Below are positions 1 through 5,196 of a stretch of 64,000 nucleotides of DNA, one piece after another. How positions within the stretch are numbered: position 1 is the stretch's first letter; each line of letters starts with the position of its first letter. Under the pieces are notes generated by a model. The model had not been told where the DNA came from, ran no database searches, and saw nothing but the letters and a program-made list of their open reading frames with translations. This DNA is from Pseudomonadota bacterium (GTDB lineage Bacteria; Pseudomonadota; Alphaproteobacteria; UBA11222): contig JBMOMX010000008.1 of the NCBI GenBank assembly GCA_049323435.1, forward strand, positions 40,609 to 104,608, in the 5' to 3' direction. The translations under genes and the position numbers were made by a program.

Positions 1-359
1 TTCGGGTGATATGGACACATGCATTGAAGACCCCCGGTTTCACAGTGCGATTTTGCAACAAATTATCACGCCCCGCCCCCTGACGCATGCCCTTAATCCC
101 CTCCATCCGCTCAAGCCTGGCCTCGATGCGGGCCAGCGCTTCCAGAATATGGCGCAGTTTTTCTTCCTGGCGCGCCAGACGCTCCGCCATATCGCTCTGC
201 GCGGCCGCAACGCTTTCCAGCCGCGTCACCCGCTCGCTCATGCCCCCGGCCCAGATCAGCGCGGTGCCGATCTGCACGCCCAATATCAGAAACAGCATCA
301 CCGGCACGCGGCGGTCAATGCCCCAGCCGTTCTTTCCCATGCTCTCGATCGTGCTCATG
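1..359 (-). CDS. Small membrane/coiled-coil protein, partial (runs off the window start), immediately downstream of the portal gene (position equivalent to GTA g3.5 / phage head accessory gene)
   Basis: Minus-strand ATG at 357-359 preceded by AGGTG RBS, 14 bp after the portal stop. Translation MSTIESMGKNGWGIDRRVPVMLFLILGVQIGTALIWAGG... has one TM helix then a coiled-coil segment. No stop before position 1. Not in the ORF track because it is incomplete. Confidence 0.45.
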
Positions 360-373
360 TCACACCTATATGT

Positions 374-1621
374 TTATGATTTGTTCTTAACATCGGAAAG
401 CCGGTCCCCATCCGCCAGCGGCGCATAGCCGGCCGCCGCGCGCTTTTCATTGAGCGTCAGAAAATCGGCAGCGCGCACCCGTTCCCACAGGCTGTCGCGG
501 TCCGCCGCCAGCGCCTCCACCTGATCGGCGTCATACCAAAGCCGCAGCCCCGTCCCGAAACGCGGCCCCAGCCACTGGTTCAGTGCCGCACAGGCTTTTC
601 CCACTAACGGCAGAACCGTCTGCCGGTGAAACGCCAGATTGGCTTCGCGGTAATTGGCATAGGTATTATCCCCCTGAATGCCCAGCAGCATCGGCGGCAC
701 GCCAAACGCCAGCGCAATTTCACGCGCCGCCACATGTTTTGACTGAATGAAATCCATGTCTTTTGGATTGAACGACATTTCCTTCCAGTCCAGCCCGCCT
801 TCCAGCAGCAAAGGCCGCCCCGCATTTGAGGCGCCCTGATAATTATCCGACAATTCCTGTTTCAGGCGCGCCACCTGATCCTGGCTCAGATTTGGGCTTC
901 CATCCGTACCCTGATAAATCAGCGCGCCCGATGGCCGCGCCCCGTTATCCAGCAGCGCCTTGTTCCACCCGGCGGCCGCATTATGCAAATCAATGCCAAG
1001 CGCTGCCGCTTCAATGGGCGAAAATCCATAATGGTCATTACTGGGATGAAACAGCTTCATATGCAAAATAGGCGCGCGCCCGCGCATGGCGTCCATTTCA
1101 AAACGCACCGATTTGCCGCCCGCTGAATATTCATACGCCGCCGGCCATCCCCGCGCGCCTGGAACCAGTTTCATCCGGTCCGGGCGCAGCGCATATAATT
1201 CACGCGGCGCGCCGCGCACTTCCACCGCTTCAAGATAGGCATTGCCCGAAATCTGCAAAAATCCGAACCAGGCTTCTTTCAGCTCCACCCCGCTTTGCAG
1301 CGGGTTGGGCCGCGCCAGCAAATCCAGCAGCGGATGGGTGTCCAGTTCCTGCTCCCGCCTTCCTGCGCCTTGATACAATATCCACGGCACGGCAGCCGCC
1401 GTTTCGCTGATCATCCGTACACAGCGATAGGCAATGGCGTTGCGGGCAAATCCTTCCTGCGCCAGATCGCCATATTGGCGCGGCGTCCACACGGGCGCGC
1501 CCTGCCCATGCAACGCAATAAGCGCGCCCGCCGCACTTTGCTTTTCATCAAGCTGCGGACGCAGGCCAAGCCTGCGTAATATGCTGAATGGATCCCTCAC
1601 GCTCGCTCCTTTCAAATTCAC
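374..1621 (-). CDS. Phage portal protein (HK97/GTA-type)
   Basis: 415-aa ORF. Size and sequence character match HK97-family portal proteins. Start overlaps the terminase stop (operon). Confidence 0.75.
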   Translation of the reverse strand: MNLKGASVRDPFSILRRLGLRPQLDEKQSAAGALIALHGQGAPVWTPRQYGDLAQEGFARNAIAYRCVRMISETAAAVPWILYQGAGRREQELDTHPLLDLLARPNPLQSGVELKEAWFGFLQISGNAYLEAVEVRGAPRELYALRPDRMKLVPGARGWPAAYEYSAGGKSVRFEMDAMRGRAPILHMKLFHPSNDHYGFSPIEAAALGIDLHNAAAGWNKALLDNGARPSGALIYQGTDGSPNLSQDQVARLKQELSDNYQGASNAGRPLLLEGGLDWKEMSFNPKDMDFIQSKHVAAREIALAFGVPPMLLGIQGDNTYANYREANLAFHRQTVLPLVGKACAALNQWLGPRFGTGLRLWYDADQVEALAADRDSLWERVRAADFLTLNEKRAAAGYAPLADGDRLSDVKNKS

Positions 1622-2958
1622 TATAATCGCTGCACGCGCGGCTCGCCCGCTTCTCCGGTAAGCATCAGTTCAGTTAACGCCCACACCAGCGCGTCCACCC
1701 GGTCCGGGCTCCATCCGGCTGCGGCCCGGTTGAAACTCCGGGTGAATTCCGCCATCTCATCTTCCAGCAGCGGGAATGCCCCGACATGATGCACCCGGCC
1801 CTGTTCATACAGCGCAGATACCGGTTCCGCGCGCGACGCCTTGCCCCGGCTGGCGCGCACAGACCGCACCGGCGCATTGGCGTCCACCTGCCGGATCACC
1901 GCTTCCACCATATCGCCGCCCTGATTGACCTCCGCCACGATCCGGTCCGCTGCAAAATCCCGGAACGCCGCAACGGCACGGCTGGCCCAGATATGCGGTG
2001 AAACTCCCTGTACGGAATAATCGGCCAGCACATAGCCATGCCCATTCCCGCCCAGTCCCGCAACAAGTATCCCGCAAGTGTCGCTATTGGCGGTGCTGGT
2101 TGCAGGCGGATCAACCGCCACCACAATGCGGATCAAATCCGCTGCCGCCGCCACCCGGCAGGCCTCTATCTGTCCCCGGCTCCACAGCGCGTCAGGATTA
2201 TCTTCCAGCAGTTCCGCCAGCAATTCCTGGCGGCCCAGCCGCGTGCCTTCATACTGCGCCGTGATGCGTTCAAAAAATTGCGGCGCCAGATTGGCCGCAT
2301 TGTCATAACTTGTTGCGCGCGACACCCGTATATTGGGATCGGCCAGAAGATCGCGCAGCAGGCGCACCGGGCGCGGCGTTGTTGTAATCACCTGCCTGGG
2401 ATCGGTGCCCAGCCGCAATCCGAATTGCAGCATGTCCCAGGTTTCGCGGCCATGCCGCCATTTGGTTAATTCATCCGCCCACGCCCCGTCAAATTGCGGG
2501 CCGCGCAACCCGTCCGGATCTTCGGCGGAAAATAATTGCGCCTGTGCGCCATTGGGCCAGATCACCCGGCGCTTTGATGCTTCATATTTTGGCCGCGCCC
2601 AGGGCGGCGAAATGGCCAGAATGCCGCTTTCGCCTTCCACCATGACATCACGCGCGGCGCTGATGGTTTCCCCAATCAGCGCCAGGCGCGCCCGCTGCCC
2701 GCGCGCCAGCGGCGTCCGGCCCATAACCGAGCTGCGCACCCATTCCGCACCTGCGCGCGTTTTGCCTGCCCCGCGCCCCCCCAGTAAAAGCCAGCCTACC
2801 CATTTACCTTCCGGGGCCAGTTGATCCTCACGCGCCCAGAATGGCCACAGCCAGTTAATCTGCCCGCGGATGCTTGCCGGCAGCGCGTCAAGAATCTCAT
2901 CCCTCTGCTTTTGCGGCAGCGAGGCGAGCCAGGCGGCGTTGTACTTCGTCCCAGCCAT
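1621..2958 (-). CDS. Phage terminase large subunit (GTA TerL-like, ~445 aa)
   Basis: Walker A-like GGRGAGKTRAG near the N-terminus. C-terminal nuclease-domain character. Overlaps the upstream small ORF and the downstream portal. Confidence 0.8.
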   Translation of the reverse strand: MAGTKYNAAWLASLPQKQRDEILDALPASIRGQINWLWPFWAREDQLAPEGKWVGWLLLGGRGAGKTRAGAEWVRSSVMGRTPLARGQRARLALIGETISAARDVMVEGESGILAISPPWARPKYEASKRRVIWPNGAQAQLFSAEDPDGLRGPQFDGAWADELTKWRHGRETWDMLQFGLRLGTDPRQVITTTPRPVRLLRDLLADPNIRVSRATSYDNAANLAPQFFERITAQYEGTRLGRQELLAELLEDNPDALWSRGQIEACRVAAAADLIRIVVAVDPPATSTANSDTCGILVAGLGGNGHGYVLADYSVQGVSPHIWASRAVAAFRDFAADRIVAEVNQGGDMVEAVIRQVDANAPVRSVRASRGKASRAEPVSALYEQGRVHHVGAFPLLEDEMAEFTRSFNRAAAGWSPDRVDALVWALTELMLTGEAGEPRVQRL

Positions 2959-3441
2959 CTTCCGCCTCCGCTATCATTTCTGGCGCGCCTTGATCCTGTG
3001 CGGGCTTCGCGCCCTGCGTGGCGTCACGCTCCAGCACCGTCAGTTTCTCCAGCGCCCGCGCCAGCGATGTCAGAATATCCGCAGCGCCCTTTTTTTCCGT
3101 CGCGCTCATGCCTGGCTTTTCCGGATGATCCAGATGCTGCTCCAGCTCATCCGCCAGGCGGTTGACAATCCCCATCATCCGCCCCAGCGCCCGTCTGGCA
3201 TTGATATTTTCCTGCGGTTTGGCGCGGCCTTTGCGTGACACGCTGACACTTGCGGGACGCGCTGGCGCCTTGGCGGCCTGTGCCGTAATAACAGGTGATG
3301 GCCGCGCCCACCCGTCGCGTTTGGCCTTTGCATGAATCGTGATTGCCGCCATCCCATGTTTGCGTGCAATCTCCGCCACCGGCACATCGCGCGTATGATA
3401 GTCCCGCGCGACAGAATCCCAGTCGATACTCCGCTGTGTCA
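2897..3441 (-). CDS. Terminase small subunit-like HTH protein (GTA g1-like)
   Basis: ATG at 3441 with AGGGAG RBS. N-terminal HTH (VAEIARKHGMAAITIHAKAKRDGW). 3' end overlaps the terL start. The track ORF extends to 3583, but that extension contains a terminator hairpin, so it is not coding. Confidence 0.45.
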
Positions 3442-3480
3442 TTCCCGCTCCCTGTATAAATTGCGCTGCGTGCCGCCCAT

Positions 3481-3508
3481 AAAAAAAGCGCCCGTTACAC
3501 TGGGCGCT
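3481..3508 (-). terminator. Rho-independent terminator on the minus strand, between the upstream regulator-like gene and the packaging genes
   Basis: Minus-strand RNA: AGCGCCC-AGUGUAAC-GGGCGCU followed by U7. A 7-bp GC stem plus T-run. Lies about 40 nt upstream of the terS-like ATG. Confidence 0.55.
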
Positions 3509-3627
3509 GTTTGTAATCCTGCTGCTGATCATCCCGTGCCGCCCGCCTGTACCAGAATTGGCGGCGGACGCAATTTCGACCATGGATAAATTTATAACTT
3601 ATATCGTTATGATTAGCAAGAAAAAAA

Positions 3628-4479
3628 TTACGTATAATGTAAATTATTTTTTTTGTTCTTATTCAGGGGCGCGGAACGCATGGAATCTGGCTGCGCTTCA
3701 GCGGCCTGCTCCGGCCTGATGCCATAATGCACCGCCAGCAATGACAGCGCGATACCCAGCACCACCTTGCCCGACCGCACCGGCCAGCCCAATTGCTTTT
3801 CGGCCTCGGCCAGCCCGTTCAGATGACAACATACCTGCAACAACACACTGCCCAGATCGGAGCCCACCGCCTGTAACGCTTTCCATACCCGGTCCTTGGC
3901 GCCGATCATGGCGTCATTCATGTTGGCTGCGCCGCCATTGCCGCTGCGTCCTGCATGATTGACCGGCATGCCCCATAGGGCCGTCACCCTGGGGTCCAGA
4001 TTTGCCAGCGTAAAATCCCGCCGCAACCGCTCGCCTGCTGTAAATTGATCAAGGCTTATCAGTGTCTTGCCTTGCCGGTCTTTATGGCGGAACAACCAGC
4101 TCAGCGGGCTTTCCGCATGATTGACCCGGACCATGACCGTGCCGCCCGTTTCTGACTTTATCTCGCCAATATCCAGATCTTGATGCTGGCTGCGAAAGGG
4201 CGAATCATTTGCAGTGGCACGGCGCAGCCTTGCACGCCCCAGCGGCGAAATCACCCATTGCAAGGCCTGGCCAGCCTGCGCCACAATCAGCTCCTCACGC
4301 GACAGATGCGTAAATATTTCCTGCGAAATACACAGAACCGGAGCAGCAAATTTGTTGCGCGCCACAAAAATTCCCAGCCCCCCATCCCCATCCTGGCGGC
4401 CATAGGCCTGGTGTTCCGCCAGCCGCCGCAACGCAGTTTCCAGCAAAGGAAATCTATCACTAATAGGTGCGTTAGACAT
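3628..4479 (-). CDS. Hypothetical HTH-like regulator candidate, co-oriented with and directly upstream of the phage/GTA head genes (possible GafA-type activator)
   Basis: 288-aa ORF, start MSNAPI with GGGGG RBS. C-terminal LGSVLLQVCCHLNGLAEAEKQLGWPVRSGKVVLGIALSLLAVHYG resembles a sigma-region-4/HTH-like segment. 3' end runs into an AT-rich tract. Confidence 0.4.
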   Translation of the reverse strand: MSNAPISDRFPLLETALRRLAEHQAYGRQDGDGGLGIFVARNKFAAPVLCISQEIFTHLSREELIVAQAGQALQWVISPLGRARLRRATANDSPFRSQHQDLDIGEIKSETGGTVMVRVNHAESPLSWLFRHKDRQGKTLISLDQFTAGERLRRDFTLANLDPRVTALWGMPVNHAGRSGNGGAANMNDAMIGAKDRVWKALQAVGSDLGSVLLQVCCHLNGLAEAEKQLGWPVRSGKVVLGIALSLLAVHYGIRPEQAAEAQPDSMRSAPLNKNKKNNLHYT

Positions 4480-4611
4480 ATTACCCCCATACATTGCAGG
4501 TTTTTATTCCTTTTATAGGACTTTTTACTGAATTGCAAGTGAAAGCTATAACCTATAGAGTTAGTTAATGATTTAAATAATCTCATTTTACGTAAATTTC
4601 CGGTTAGCGAA

Positions 4612-5196
4612 ATGACCCTGATGCACAATAAAATCCGCACTTTCCGCAAGCAGCGCGGCATGACCCTGGCGGCGCTGGGGGCAGCGATTGGTCTCACGCC
4701 GCAATCCGTTTCGCGTATTGAAAACGGCAAAATGCGCCTGTCCACGGACTGGATGGTGCGCATCGCCGGGGCTTTGAATGTCAGCCCGCTCGACCTGCTG
4801 GATGCCGGCGCTCCCGGCGGCGCGGAATTAATCGGCGAGGCTGGCGCCGACGGGGCCTGCACGGCGCTCACCCCGCAACTGTTCCGCATGGCCTTGCCAG
4901 GCCCGGGCCAGTTGGTATTACGCCTGGCTCAGGATTGCGGCCCCTATCGCGCGGGCGAATATCTGGTCTGTGCGCGCCTGGCGCAATATGAACTGGTATC
5001 GGCGCTGGGATGCGACTGCCTGGTGGAATTATCCGGGGGCGGACGATTTTTATGCCGTGTGGTGTCGCGCAGCGCCGGCGCACGCGCAACCGCAGTCTTC
5101 ACTCTCGCCGCTCTGGCATCCGGCGGCTGGGTACTGGAAAATCAGTCCTTGGCCTGGATCGCCGCCATCCGCATGCGCCTGCAATTTGTAAGCTGA
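4612..5196 (+). CDS. XRE-family HTH transcriptional regulator (CI/Cro-like) with C-terminal domain
   Basis: N-terminal RGMTLAALGAAIGLTPQSVSRIENGK is a canonical XRE HTH. Divergent from the 288-aa gene across an AT-rich 118-bp region. Confidence 0.75.
   Translation: MTLMHNKIRTFRKQRGMTLAALGAAIGLTPQSVSRIENGKMRLSTDWMVRIAGALNVSPLDLLDAGAPGGAELIGEAGADGACTALTPQLFRMALPGPGQLVLRLAQDCGPYRAGEYLVCARLAQYELVSALGCDCLVELSGGGRFLCRVVSRSAGARATAVFTLAALASGGWVLENQSLAWIAAIRMRLQFVS

Follow-up and report, generated by a model that had tools for sequence, protein, structure and literature searches.

A GafZ-like regulator, a RogA-like repressor gene and a leader terminator adjoin the packaging genes of an RcGTA-type gene transfer agent cluster

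Positions 1-5196 of a 64-kb stretch of DNA from an uncultured alphaproteobacterium (contig JBMOMX010000008.1; the whole 64 kb is referred to here as the window) form a packaging and regulator locus. Profile searches and related contigs support a reading of this locus as the regulatory and packaging end of a head-tail cluster of the type described for the gene transfer agent (GTA) of Rhodobacter capsulatus (RcGTA). A control cassette is attached to the cluster, and a terminator that may act as a gate lies in the cluster leader. We propose, with moderate confidence, that a linked repressor holds the gafZ-like gene off, and that the GafZ-like protein, once made, binds a dyad in the cluster promoter and bypasses the terminator in the leader.

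GTA production kills the producing cell, and the central question is how a cluster of 15-20 kb stays silent and then becomes fully transcribed. To our knowledge, anti-termination by GafZ has been demonstrated in one organism only. Neither this type of system nor the mechanism likely to drive it was new, while the compact, apparently GafY-less switch and a small terminase (TerS) bearing a helix-turn-helix (HTH) were somewhat unexpected.

Gene identities were assigned by profile searches with Pfam, NCBIfam and PHROGs, and related contigs from metagenome-assembled genomes or metagenomes are labelled with L-numbers (L001, L088 and so on). The original prediction for this DNA listed a regulator, a terminator, TerS, the large terminase (TerL), a portal and a transmembrane protein, and all were present in that order and with those sizes and coordinates, including a regulator reading frame of 288 aa at 3628-4494 on the minus strand (283 aa from the ATG at 4479). 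The features of the control region are as follows.

3628-4494, minus strand: DUF6456 gene, 288 aa; PF20057, E = 4.6e-46, residues 122-258
3624-3643, minus strand: a tandem pair of TTTACRTAAT-like sites upstream of the -35 that overlaps the final DUF6456 codons and the stop; conserved in relatives
3591-3619, minus strand: predicted cluster promoter, with -35 TTGCTA (3619-3614), 17-nt spacer and -10 TATAAA (3596-3591)
3566-3585, minus strand: box CCATGGTCGAAATTGCGTCC, conserved, at predicted transcription start A3583; single match in the window, 0.01 expected
3539-3567, minus strand: tentative first leader hairpin (CCGCCGCC...GGCGGGCGG), from single-sequence folds
3481-3508, minus strand: intrinsic terminator, stem AGCGCCC/GGGCGCT (3508-3502/3493-3487), 8-nt loop, T7 at 3487-3481
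4495-4611, no strand: divergent control region; second promoter dyad at 4547-4563 (TAACTCTATAGGTTATA), palindrome TTACGTAA at 4588-4595
4612-5196, plus strand: XRE-family gene, 194 aa; HTH_3, 8.7e-14; divergent from the DUF6456 gene

The stop codon of the DUF6456 gene (3630-3628) is followed by 186 nt before the terS start (3442), and the predicted promoter lies within this interval. Alignment of the promoter block from the window and from L001, L008, L009, L089, L090, L091, L092, L097, L098 and L099 showed that it was conserved in all related loci, and the promoter motif was unique in the window (0 expected). The -35 element reads TTGCAA or TTGACA in the relatives, and the -10 region, GTTATAAN, fits GCTANAWC, which we take to be the alphaproteobacterial housekeeping consensus. 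In L060 the block is found directly upstream of terS, with the DUF6456 gene 1.9 kb away and two unannotated open reading frames (ORFs) apparently between them. The block is therefore a part of the cluster; it is not a feature of the regulator gene's 3' end. Because this conserved promoter sits between the regulator gene and the terminator, the design is one of promoter, leader terminator and terS. The control by read-through or anti-termination that had been put forward for this locus thus gains a candidate, the DUF6456 protein, from a family that anti-terminates in Caulobacter (PMC11150451), but it would not consist only of read-through from the regulator gene.

The spacer and the -10 element together contain a dyad, TAAC-N2-TATA-N-GTTA (TAACGATATAAGTTATA, 3609-3593). 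Its 17-nt pattern, TAACNNTATANGTTATA, occurs exactly twice in the 64 kb, at 3609-3593 and at 4563-4547 in the divergent control region (0 expected), and both copies were present in all near-identical contigs. The TTTACRTAAT-like sites numbered 11 in the window versus 2.7 expected, with 5 of the 11 in the two regulatory regions; the perfect TTACGTAA palindrome at 4588-4595 is one of the similar sites in the divergent control region. When IMG/VR was searched with the promoter motif, one true relative (L092) was recovered, along with two chance matches in A+T-rich phage DNA (L093 and L094). A CtrA box (TTAA-N7-TTAAC or GTAAC-N6-TTAAC) in the dyad was considered and rejected by eye, its spacing and orientation being a misfit.

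The conserved box carries an ATG at 3583, and if transcription started at A3583 this ATG would stand at the extreme 5' end, as in a leaderless message. A leader peptide from the ATG was rejected: the frames ran for 8, 9, 13, 19, 27 or 32 codons or continued in frame into terS, and the changes in the box were, by eye, not mainly synonymous. In the window the reading frame from this ATG continues across the hairpin and U-tract into terS, giving a 228-aa ORF (2897-3583, minus strand), and the same is seen in L091.

The terminator lies at 3481-3508, between the regulator and the packaging genes, exactly where a strong hairpin followed by U7 had been predicted. Its stem of 7 bp (6 G-C) has a folding energy of about -12 to -14 kcal/mol, and the last T of the T-run is 38 nt ahead of the terS ATG. 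A simple terminator pattern was not rare (8 found versus 8.4 expected in 8 kb), and the site at 3481-3508 ranked in the top four of the 64 kb for hairpin-plus-T-run strength. A hairpin with a T-run adjoins terS in nine of ten related lineages. The terminator is more than a chance match, because the homologous hairpin is kept ahead of terS across these lineages. In L001, L009, L089, L090, L091, L092 and L098 the hairpin was homologous in sequence and followed by T7-8, and L099 has a hairpin with T6 and a different stem sequence ahead of terS.

The distance from the U-tract to the ATG of terS is 38-47 nt in the window, L009, L090 and L091, and up to 52 nt if L089 is counted, and no conserved -35/-10 pair was found between these two points in the five sequences. 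As the gap is short and nothing promoter-like is conserved in it, transcription of terS must pass the terminator. The leader as a whole varies from ~140 nt in the window to ~370 nt in relatives with repeat insertions, and reaches ~1.1 kb in L098. Whatever the length of the leader, the terminator stays ~40-135 nt before the terS ATG.

These distances bear on a rival explanation, in which the hairpin is a plain gene-end terminator, or insulator, of the DUF6456 gene, and the cluster promoter overlaps or follows it. The hairpin does lie downstream of the DUF6456 stop, as expected of a gene terminator, a TATAAT-like hexamer precedes the terS ATG by ~20 nt in the long-leader relatives L001, L008, L089 and L092, and L008 does without a hairpin. 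We nevertheless consider an insulator unlikely. In the window, L009, L090 and L091 the 38-47 nt that follow the U-tract hold no conserved -35/-10, and upstream of the hairpin lies the conserved promoter-like motif, which in L060 stands at terS with no adjoining DUF6456 gene. In L098, moreover, two inserted genes put ~1.1 kb between the DUF6456 gene and the hairpin, which keeps its place at terS.

The two inserted genes of L098 (L098:2249-3009) encode DUF4258 and HTH_3 proteins, resemble a toxin-antitoxin pair and separate the promoter from the terminator; the XRE gene of the same contig is apparently broken into two tblastn segments. Repeat elements occupy other leaders. One type, ...GGATTGCCACGGCG...CGCAATGACG..., was found in L001, L008, L089 and L092. 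A second, CTGGACCCCGCAACAAGTGCGGGGTGACA, was found in the leader of L090 and at 40551-40514 (minus strand) of the window, there followed by T6. These repeats look like a dispersed family of the REP (repetitive extragenic palindromic) or MITE (miniature inverted-repeat transposable element) kind.

At the place of the first leader hairpin, most relatives have a G+C-rich hairpin with a differing stem sequence. This variable hairpin was not recovered, and no covariation established, when RNAalifold was run on the initial 70 nt of the leaders. Rfam returned no RNA family, either for the whole window at the gathering threshold or for 3380-4650 at an E-value threshold. A classical attenuator, with the 3' arm of the first hairpin pairing to the 5' arm of the terminator, was also rejected by eye, since the 5 G-C pairs it would form in the window were not conserved in relatives.

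The presumed regulator of this promoter was next to it. The DUF6456 gene has an alternative start at ATG 4479, preceded by a GGGGG Shine-Dalgarno-like run and called as the start on related contigs. Searches with the protein gave 264 homologues, and PF20057 was present in all 120 listed. BLAST with R. capsulatus GafA retrieves DUF6456 proteins (PMC9638019), and Kogay et al. report that gafA is annotated as DUF6456, is present in 94% of GTA-bearing genomes and lies outside the head-tail cluster in R. capsulatus (PMC9765227). Judged by its domain match, the window protein belongs to the GafA/GafZ family of GTA activators. It has no PHROG family, and a PDB sequence search gave nothing meaningful. 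Homology to Q, Q21, Q82 or AlpA was not found, as Pfam, NCBIfam, PHROG and PDB sequence searches gave no match besides DUF6456.

An AlphaFold model of the protein had a mean predicted local distance difference test score (pLDDT) of 74. Its N-terminal alpha/beta domain (residues 11-96) gave weak winged-helix-like matches. For the C-terminal helices (residues 194-256, pLDDT ~90), the best local Foldseek matches were to sigma region 4 of SigD/SigL, with probabilities of 0.9-0.97, template modelling (TM) scores of up to 0.87 and E > 0.5.

Two activators of this family have been described in some detail. Caulobacter GafZ binds a palindrome between the -35 and -10 elements of the GTA promoter, travels with RNA polymerase and NusA/E/G, and bypasses both terGTA and the foreign rrnB T1 terminator (PMC11150451). 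R. capsulatus GafA has been described as a promoter-binding activator, which binds the region of the -10 element and transcription start site (TSS) of the cluster promoter as well as its own promoter (PMC6363796).

The arrangement of regulator and cluster was surveyed in metagenome DUF6456 loci, 45 of which had enough upstream and 40 enough downstream sequence. A gafY-like gene, encoding a small protein resembling DnaA domain IV, lies directly before the DUF6456 gene in 37 of the 45. In the window the neighbour is instead the divergent XRE gene, and the gap between the two regulator genes is only 118-133 nt, so that there is no room for gafY between them. At least 19 of the 45 loci have an XRE homologue that lies upstream of the DUF6456 gene and is divergent from it. 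Five of the eight gafY-less loci belong to the clade of the window or are L060; in four of these five (L008, L009, L015 and L060) the DUF6456 gene adjoins the GTA cluster, and in the fifth, L010, the contig ends first. Of the 40 loci, only 4 have TerL downstream of the DUF6456 gene at a distance of up to 6 kb. Given the prevalence of gafY and the rarity of a nearby TerL, the linkage of regulator and cluster and the absence of an adjacent gafY are a trait of this lineage and not a rule.

The XRE protein consists of an N-terminal HTH_3 domain and a beta-rich C-terminal domain, modelled with a pLDDT of 86.7. Its best structural matches in the PDB were a lambda/186 hybrid repressor, lambda repressor and a C-terminal fragment of lambda repressor (E from 7e-6 to 2e-4). 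No Ser or Lys was invariant after residue 70 in an alignment of 25 homologues (residues 70-194), indicating that there is no catalytic dyad. The protein gave no Pfam match to Peptidase_S24, and alignment by hhalign with Escherichia coli LexA showed no similarity; the claim of an S24-like domain is for this reason taken from the fold. The Caulobacter repressor RogA combines an HTH with an S24-like domain that lacks catalytic residues (PMC9632790). The modelled XRE protein matches this description and appears to be a cI-like, RogA-like repressor, with indirect support from the homologues that sit divergently beside gafY-gafZ in at least 19 of the 45 loci surveyed. Immediately ahead of the DUF6456 start, the divergent control region of the window and its relatives has a block, CCTATAAAAGGWATATAAWCCTRCAAT, that is conserved. 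This block, with nested CCT/AGG inverted repeats and TATAAA/TATAAT hexamers, is probably the promoter and operator of the gafZ-like gene.

These components suggest how the cluster might be controlled. The RogA-like repressor would hold the gafZ-like gene off. Once repression was relieved, the GafZ-like protein would bind the promoter dyad, help RNA polymerase to start and stay on the enzyme; the second copy of the dyad might be bound for feedback. The modified elongation complex would then ignore the leader terminator and later ones and transcribe the long cluster. Without the GafZ-like protein, transcription begun at the cluster promoter or arriving from the gafZ-like gene would end at 3481. 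A lethal programme that ends in lysis would in this way be secured by two locks, one at initiation and one at elongation. The model builds on what was observed of gene identities, family membership, linkage, synteny and selection, and on the finding that promoter, dyad and terminator are conserved; anti-termination and the identity of the dyad-binding protein are carried over by analogy with Caulobacter, and the start of transcription is a prediction.

Several points weigh against the model. The dyad could be the operator of the cI-like repressor instead, and both the promoter and the transcription start near A3583 are predicted features. The terminator is absent in L008 and there is none in the distant L060, and RNAalifold found it conserved with no compensatory changes among close relatives. 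[quoted passage not shown] The sigma-4-like fold of the C-terminal helices is a weak indication, with Foldseek E-values above 0.5. Caulobacter GafZ acts together with GafY (PMC11150451). No gafY-like gene was detected in the 64-kb window (best tblastn E = 0.34) or beside any cluster-linked gafZ. Lastly, TerS is here phage-sized (181 aa) and carries an HTH, unlike the short TerS published as a trait of GTAs (PMC6854486).

The missing partner also favours a second explanation, in which the gate is real and is opened by other means, either by host factors or by an attenuator that works through RNA structure or is coupled to translation, with the DUF6456 protein activating initiation only. R. capsulatus GafA, described as a promoter-binding activator (PMC6363796), would set a precedent, and the box at the predicted +1, conserved and carrying an ATG, could be read together with the variable-sequence hairpin behind it as parts of such a device. 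We regard this as quite improbable. The frame from the box ATG ranges from 8 codons to an in-frame terS fusion with changes that are not mainly synonymous, alternative anti-terminator pairings are not conserved among relatives (both by eye), and Rfam gave no match. Moreover, Caulobacter GafZ bypasses even a foreign terminator (PMC11150451).

Within the favoured model of a terminator gate opened by the GafZ-like protein, a more specific proposal can be made, which we hold only tentatively and think somewhat doubtful. The locus may be a compact, self-contained and GafY-less on-switch, in which a cI-like repressor and a single GafZ-like activator and anti-terminator act on a dyad promoter, a pause or loading site formed by the box and hairpin, and the leader gate. 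If so, the switch would be a late switch of the Q/PR'/tR' kind kept from an ancestral phage, and a minimal system for GafZ anti-termination. A presumed repressor, a GafZ-like protein, a promoter and a textbook terminator within 2 kb, apparently with no GafY, would make a small and portable test system. Confirmation of the gate would suggest that terminator gating is general to RcGTA-type elements and not a peculiarity of Caulobacter.

The packaging genes that follow the gate are listed below.

2897-3442, minus strand: TerS (small terminase), 181 aa; phrog_1206, E = 3.5e-12 over residues 3-161
1621-2958, minus strand: TerL (large terminase), 445 aa; Terminase_6N 2.9e-35, Terminase_6C 2.4e-20, phrog_979
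374-1621, minus strand: HK97-type portal, 415 aa as the longest ORF; PF04860, E = 1.7e-92; TIGR01537, 1.4e-68
<1-357, minus strand: small membrane/coiled-coil gene at the g3.5 position, 5' part of 119 codons; only weak PHROG matches, to families of unknown function

The terS gene is preceded by a Shine-Dalgarno sequence, GGGAG (3452-3448), and overlaps terL by 62 nt. The HTH-like region at the N-terminus of TerS gave a weak match to Terminase_5 (residues 21-57). TerS of RcGTA, 108 aa long, has no DNA-binding domain, an absence that its authors gave as the defining trait of GTA-type TerS (PMC6854486); the phage-sized, HTH-bearing protein found here bears on which features define a GTA. TerL had at least 8000 homologues at E ≤ 1e-30. 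Among the matches listed, the named relatives were alphaproteobacterial (Parvibaculum, Methyloligella, Afifella and Kiloniellaceae, ~57-64% identity), and some of them sit on Mb-scale chromosomal contigs. Inside the terL coding sequence, a hairpin of about -10 kcal/mol followed by T6 (2272-2309, minus strand) is possibly an internal terminator for a processive anti-terminator to pass, or a chance occurrence. The portal has 408 aa from a GTG at 1600, the start used in public gene calls. The small gene encodes 142 aa when complete, as in the near-identical contigs L004, L088 and L095, with a single hydrophobic helix (VPVMLFLILGVQIGTALIWAGG) followed by a heptad-like sequence.

The continuation of the cluster beyond the start of the window was read from contigs with an identical TerL (L088) or an identical portal (L095 and L096); contigs L002-L007 were ~99% identical in DNA to the window where compared. 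Past the 142-aa gene, the order is acyl-CoA dehydrogenase, S78 prohead protease, HK97 major capsid, five extra genes, Phage_connect_1 (a faint match), Phage_HCP, Tail_completion_gp17, Phage_tail_2, Phage_TAC_11, Phage_TAC_6, a 212-aa gene, DUF2460 and BR0599, the last genes seen. The head families of the cluster are HK97-like (TIGR01537, TIGR01543, TIGR01554). The late families presumably correspond to the g6-g13 set of RcGTA, with Phage_TAC_11 as g10, Phage_TAC_6 as g10.1, DUF2460 as g12 and BR0599 as g13. Taken with terS, terL, portal and g3.5 in the window, the genes on L095 and L096 as far as BR0599 make up a collinear RcGTA-type head-tail set that is interrupted by extra genes. The protease, HK97 capsid, adaptors and tail genes expected past the window start were found on L088, L095 and L096, among them genes for connector, head closure, tail completion, major tail and GTA-type chaperones, but they are not contiguous in the RcGTA sense.

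A GTA and an intact prophage had both been considered for these genes, and the GTA had been thought the better fit. The comparison with related loci supports that choice. The order GlnA-like gene, XRE, DUF6456, terS, terL and portal is kept in L001, L008, L009, L089, L090 and L091, whose DUF6456 proteins are only 58-67% identical to that of the window. In a deeper branch, at ~50% DUF6456 identity, L099 keeps DUF6456-terS-terL-portal and L097 keeps XRE-DUF6456. Beyond the regulators, the flank in the window, L095 and L002 holds the GlnA-like gene, two acyltransferase genes (Pfam Acyltransferase and Acetyltransf_5), DUF533, TerC and PhoX. As had been noted earlier for the visible side, no integrase, replication or lysis gene was seen there, in ~8 kb past the regulator genes that held host genes only.

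Selection was estimated from pairwise ratios of non-synonymous to synonymous substitution rates (dN/dS) between the window and five relatives. Values were 0.08-0.11 for portal, 0.11-0.14 for terL, 0.30-0.40 for terS and 0.28-0.34 for the DUF6456 gene, with 0.12-0.22 for the flanking host GlnA-like gene. Synonymous divergence (dS) of terL and portal was 0.47-0.83, versus 0.71-1.31 for the GlnA-like gene, that is, of the same order and mostly lower. The genes are intact and under purifying selection, so the disrupted genes of a decaying remnant, against which the original prediction had warned, are not what is seen. From the fixed site in diverged relatives, the purifying selection and the relatives of TerL, it follows that the element is chromosomally fixed, vertically inherited and under selection, and is not a recently integrated or decaying prophage.

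One feature raised earlier as typical of an ordinary prophage, a repressor switch beside the head genes, was in part found, in the form of the cI-like gene at 4612-5196. This gene fits the published description of the GTA repressor RogA (PMC9632790), and for that reason it is not read as an ordinary prophage switch. A defective or self-packaging HK97-like prophage would account for it differently: the regulators would form a lysogeny and late-gene switch, and TerS, with its HTH, would serve to package the DNA of the element itself. The layout of a cI-like repressor next to a late-gene activator and a terminator is indeed phage-like, TerS is phage-sized with an HTH, and one IMG/VR contig of the clade is filed as viral. 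Such a prophage would, however, have to be fixed between the same host genes at a dS of ~0.5-1.3 and under strongly purifying selection, while showing neither an integrase nor a replication gene on its visible side. It would also carry the hallmark tail genes of RcGTA, a GafA-family regulator with no PHROG family, and a TerL whose named relatives are alphaproteobacterial, at ~57-64% identity and in part on Mb-scale chromosomal contigs. We consider it very unlikely. The reading as a GTA, in contrast, is supported by the tail-gene set, the fixed site, the selection and the GafA-family regulator.

The genes that interrupt the cluster bear on how freely GTA clusters take up cargo, as they include host-like and defence-like genes. 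The acyl-CoA dehydrogenase gene, embedded where the small membrane gene gives way to the prohead protease, shares their strand and either abuts the gene before it or overlaps it. It encodes 345-352 aa in L088:5577-6635, L095:11679-12716 and L096:2157-3215, and is also present at L001:16419-17558 and L091:10379-11518. The gene is intact, with all three ACAD domains; its best NCBIfam match is pimC-like and under the cutoff of that family. L090 lacks the dehydrogenase and has a DUF2335 gene in its place. L001 has two inserted genes separating portal from the dehydrogenase (L001:14501-16331), one for an ATPase (AAA_15/AAA_21) and one for a DUF3226 protein. The pair matches the PADLOC candidate defence pair PDC-M38A/B (5e-85 and 3e-56; AbiL-like) and is a candidate anti-phage system inside a GTA cluster. 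The junction between portal and protease looks like an insertion hotspot.

The five extra genes between the HK97 capsid and the connector (L095:14877-17528) encode 123, 125, 390, 130 and 91 aa and are the same in L096, L090 and L091. The 91-aa gene matches Pfam Gp77. For the 123-, 125-, 390- and 130-aa genes, a PHROG search gave no informative match, and a PADLOC search with the 390-aa gene gave no match. In the P0026 contig (ENA ERZ1305449, from its gene table), the GlnA-like, XRE, DUF6456 and terS genes are kept and are followed by a 217-aa gene, Hydrolase_2 and host genes. Most of the cluster appears to have been deleted in this lineage.

The locus can be compared with four known kinds of system. 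With HK97-like prophage heads it shares the families of TerS, TerL, portal, protease and HK97 capsid. It differs in being chromosomally fixed, regulated by a GafA-family protein and equipped with RcGTA-type tail genes, with no integrase or replication module visible.

The resemblance to the lambdoid Q/PR'/tR' switch is one of architecture or function only, as there is no sequence or family relationship to lambda Q, and integration and replication genes were not seen in the element here. In both, the regulator gene lies directly upstream of a promoter that holds the presumed loading site of the regulator, an intrinsic terminator follows ~100 nt downstream and a long head and tail operon comes after it, with a divergent cI-like repressor gene nearby.

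RcGTA shares the gene order g1-g2-g3-g3.5-g4-g5, continuing to homologues of g10, g12 and g13, and an activator of the DUF6456 family, GafA, which binds the -10/TSS region of the cluster promoter (PMC6363796). In R. capsulatus, gafA encodes a 42-kDa fusion with a DnaA-like N-terminal domain and lies far from the cluster. TerS of RcGTA, at 108 aa and with no DNA-binding domain (PMC6854486), contrasts with the 181-aa HTH protein found here, and the cluster here is interrupted by the acyl-CoA dehydrogenase and the five post-capsid genes. In the GTA literature searched, gafA and gafZ are outside the head-tail cluster, and a description of a linked arrangement of regulators and cluster was not found.

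The closest parallel in control is the GTA of Caulobacter (CcGTA). There, rogA, gafYZ and the cluster occupy three separate loci, whereas the regulators and cluster are adjacent here. The terminator of CcGTA consists of three 150-bp repeats after gtaT (TerL), in place of a canonical hairpin and U7 before terS, and gafY is paired with gafZ, whereas no gafY is adjacent or in the window. The dyads are unrelated (AAC-N2-TATA-N-GTT here, GCGCCCG-CTGGCGC in Caulobacter), and the protein here has an extra N-terminal winged-helix-like domain of ~100 aa. The two systems share a GafZ-family DUF6456 protein and a cI/LexA-like repressor without catalytic residues (PMC11150451, PMC9632790). They also share a sigma-70-type GTA promoter with a dyad between its -35 and -10 elements, a long 5' leader, and a terminator early in the cluster that needs to be bypassed (PMC11150451).

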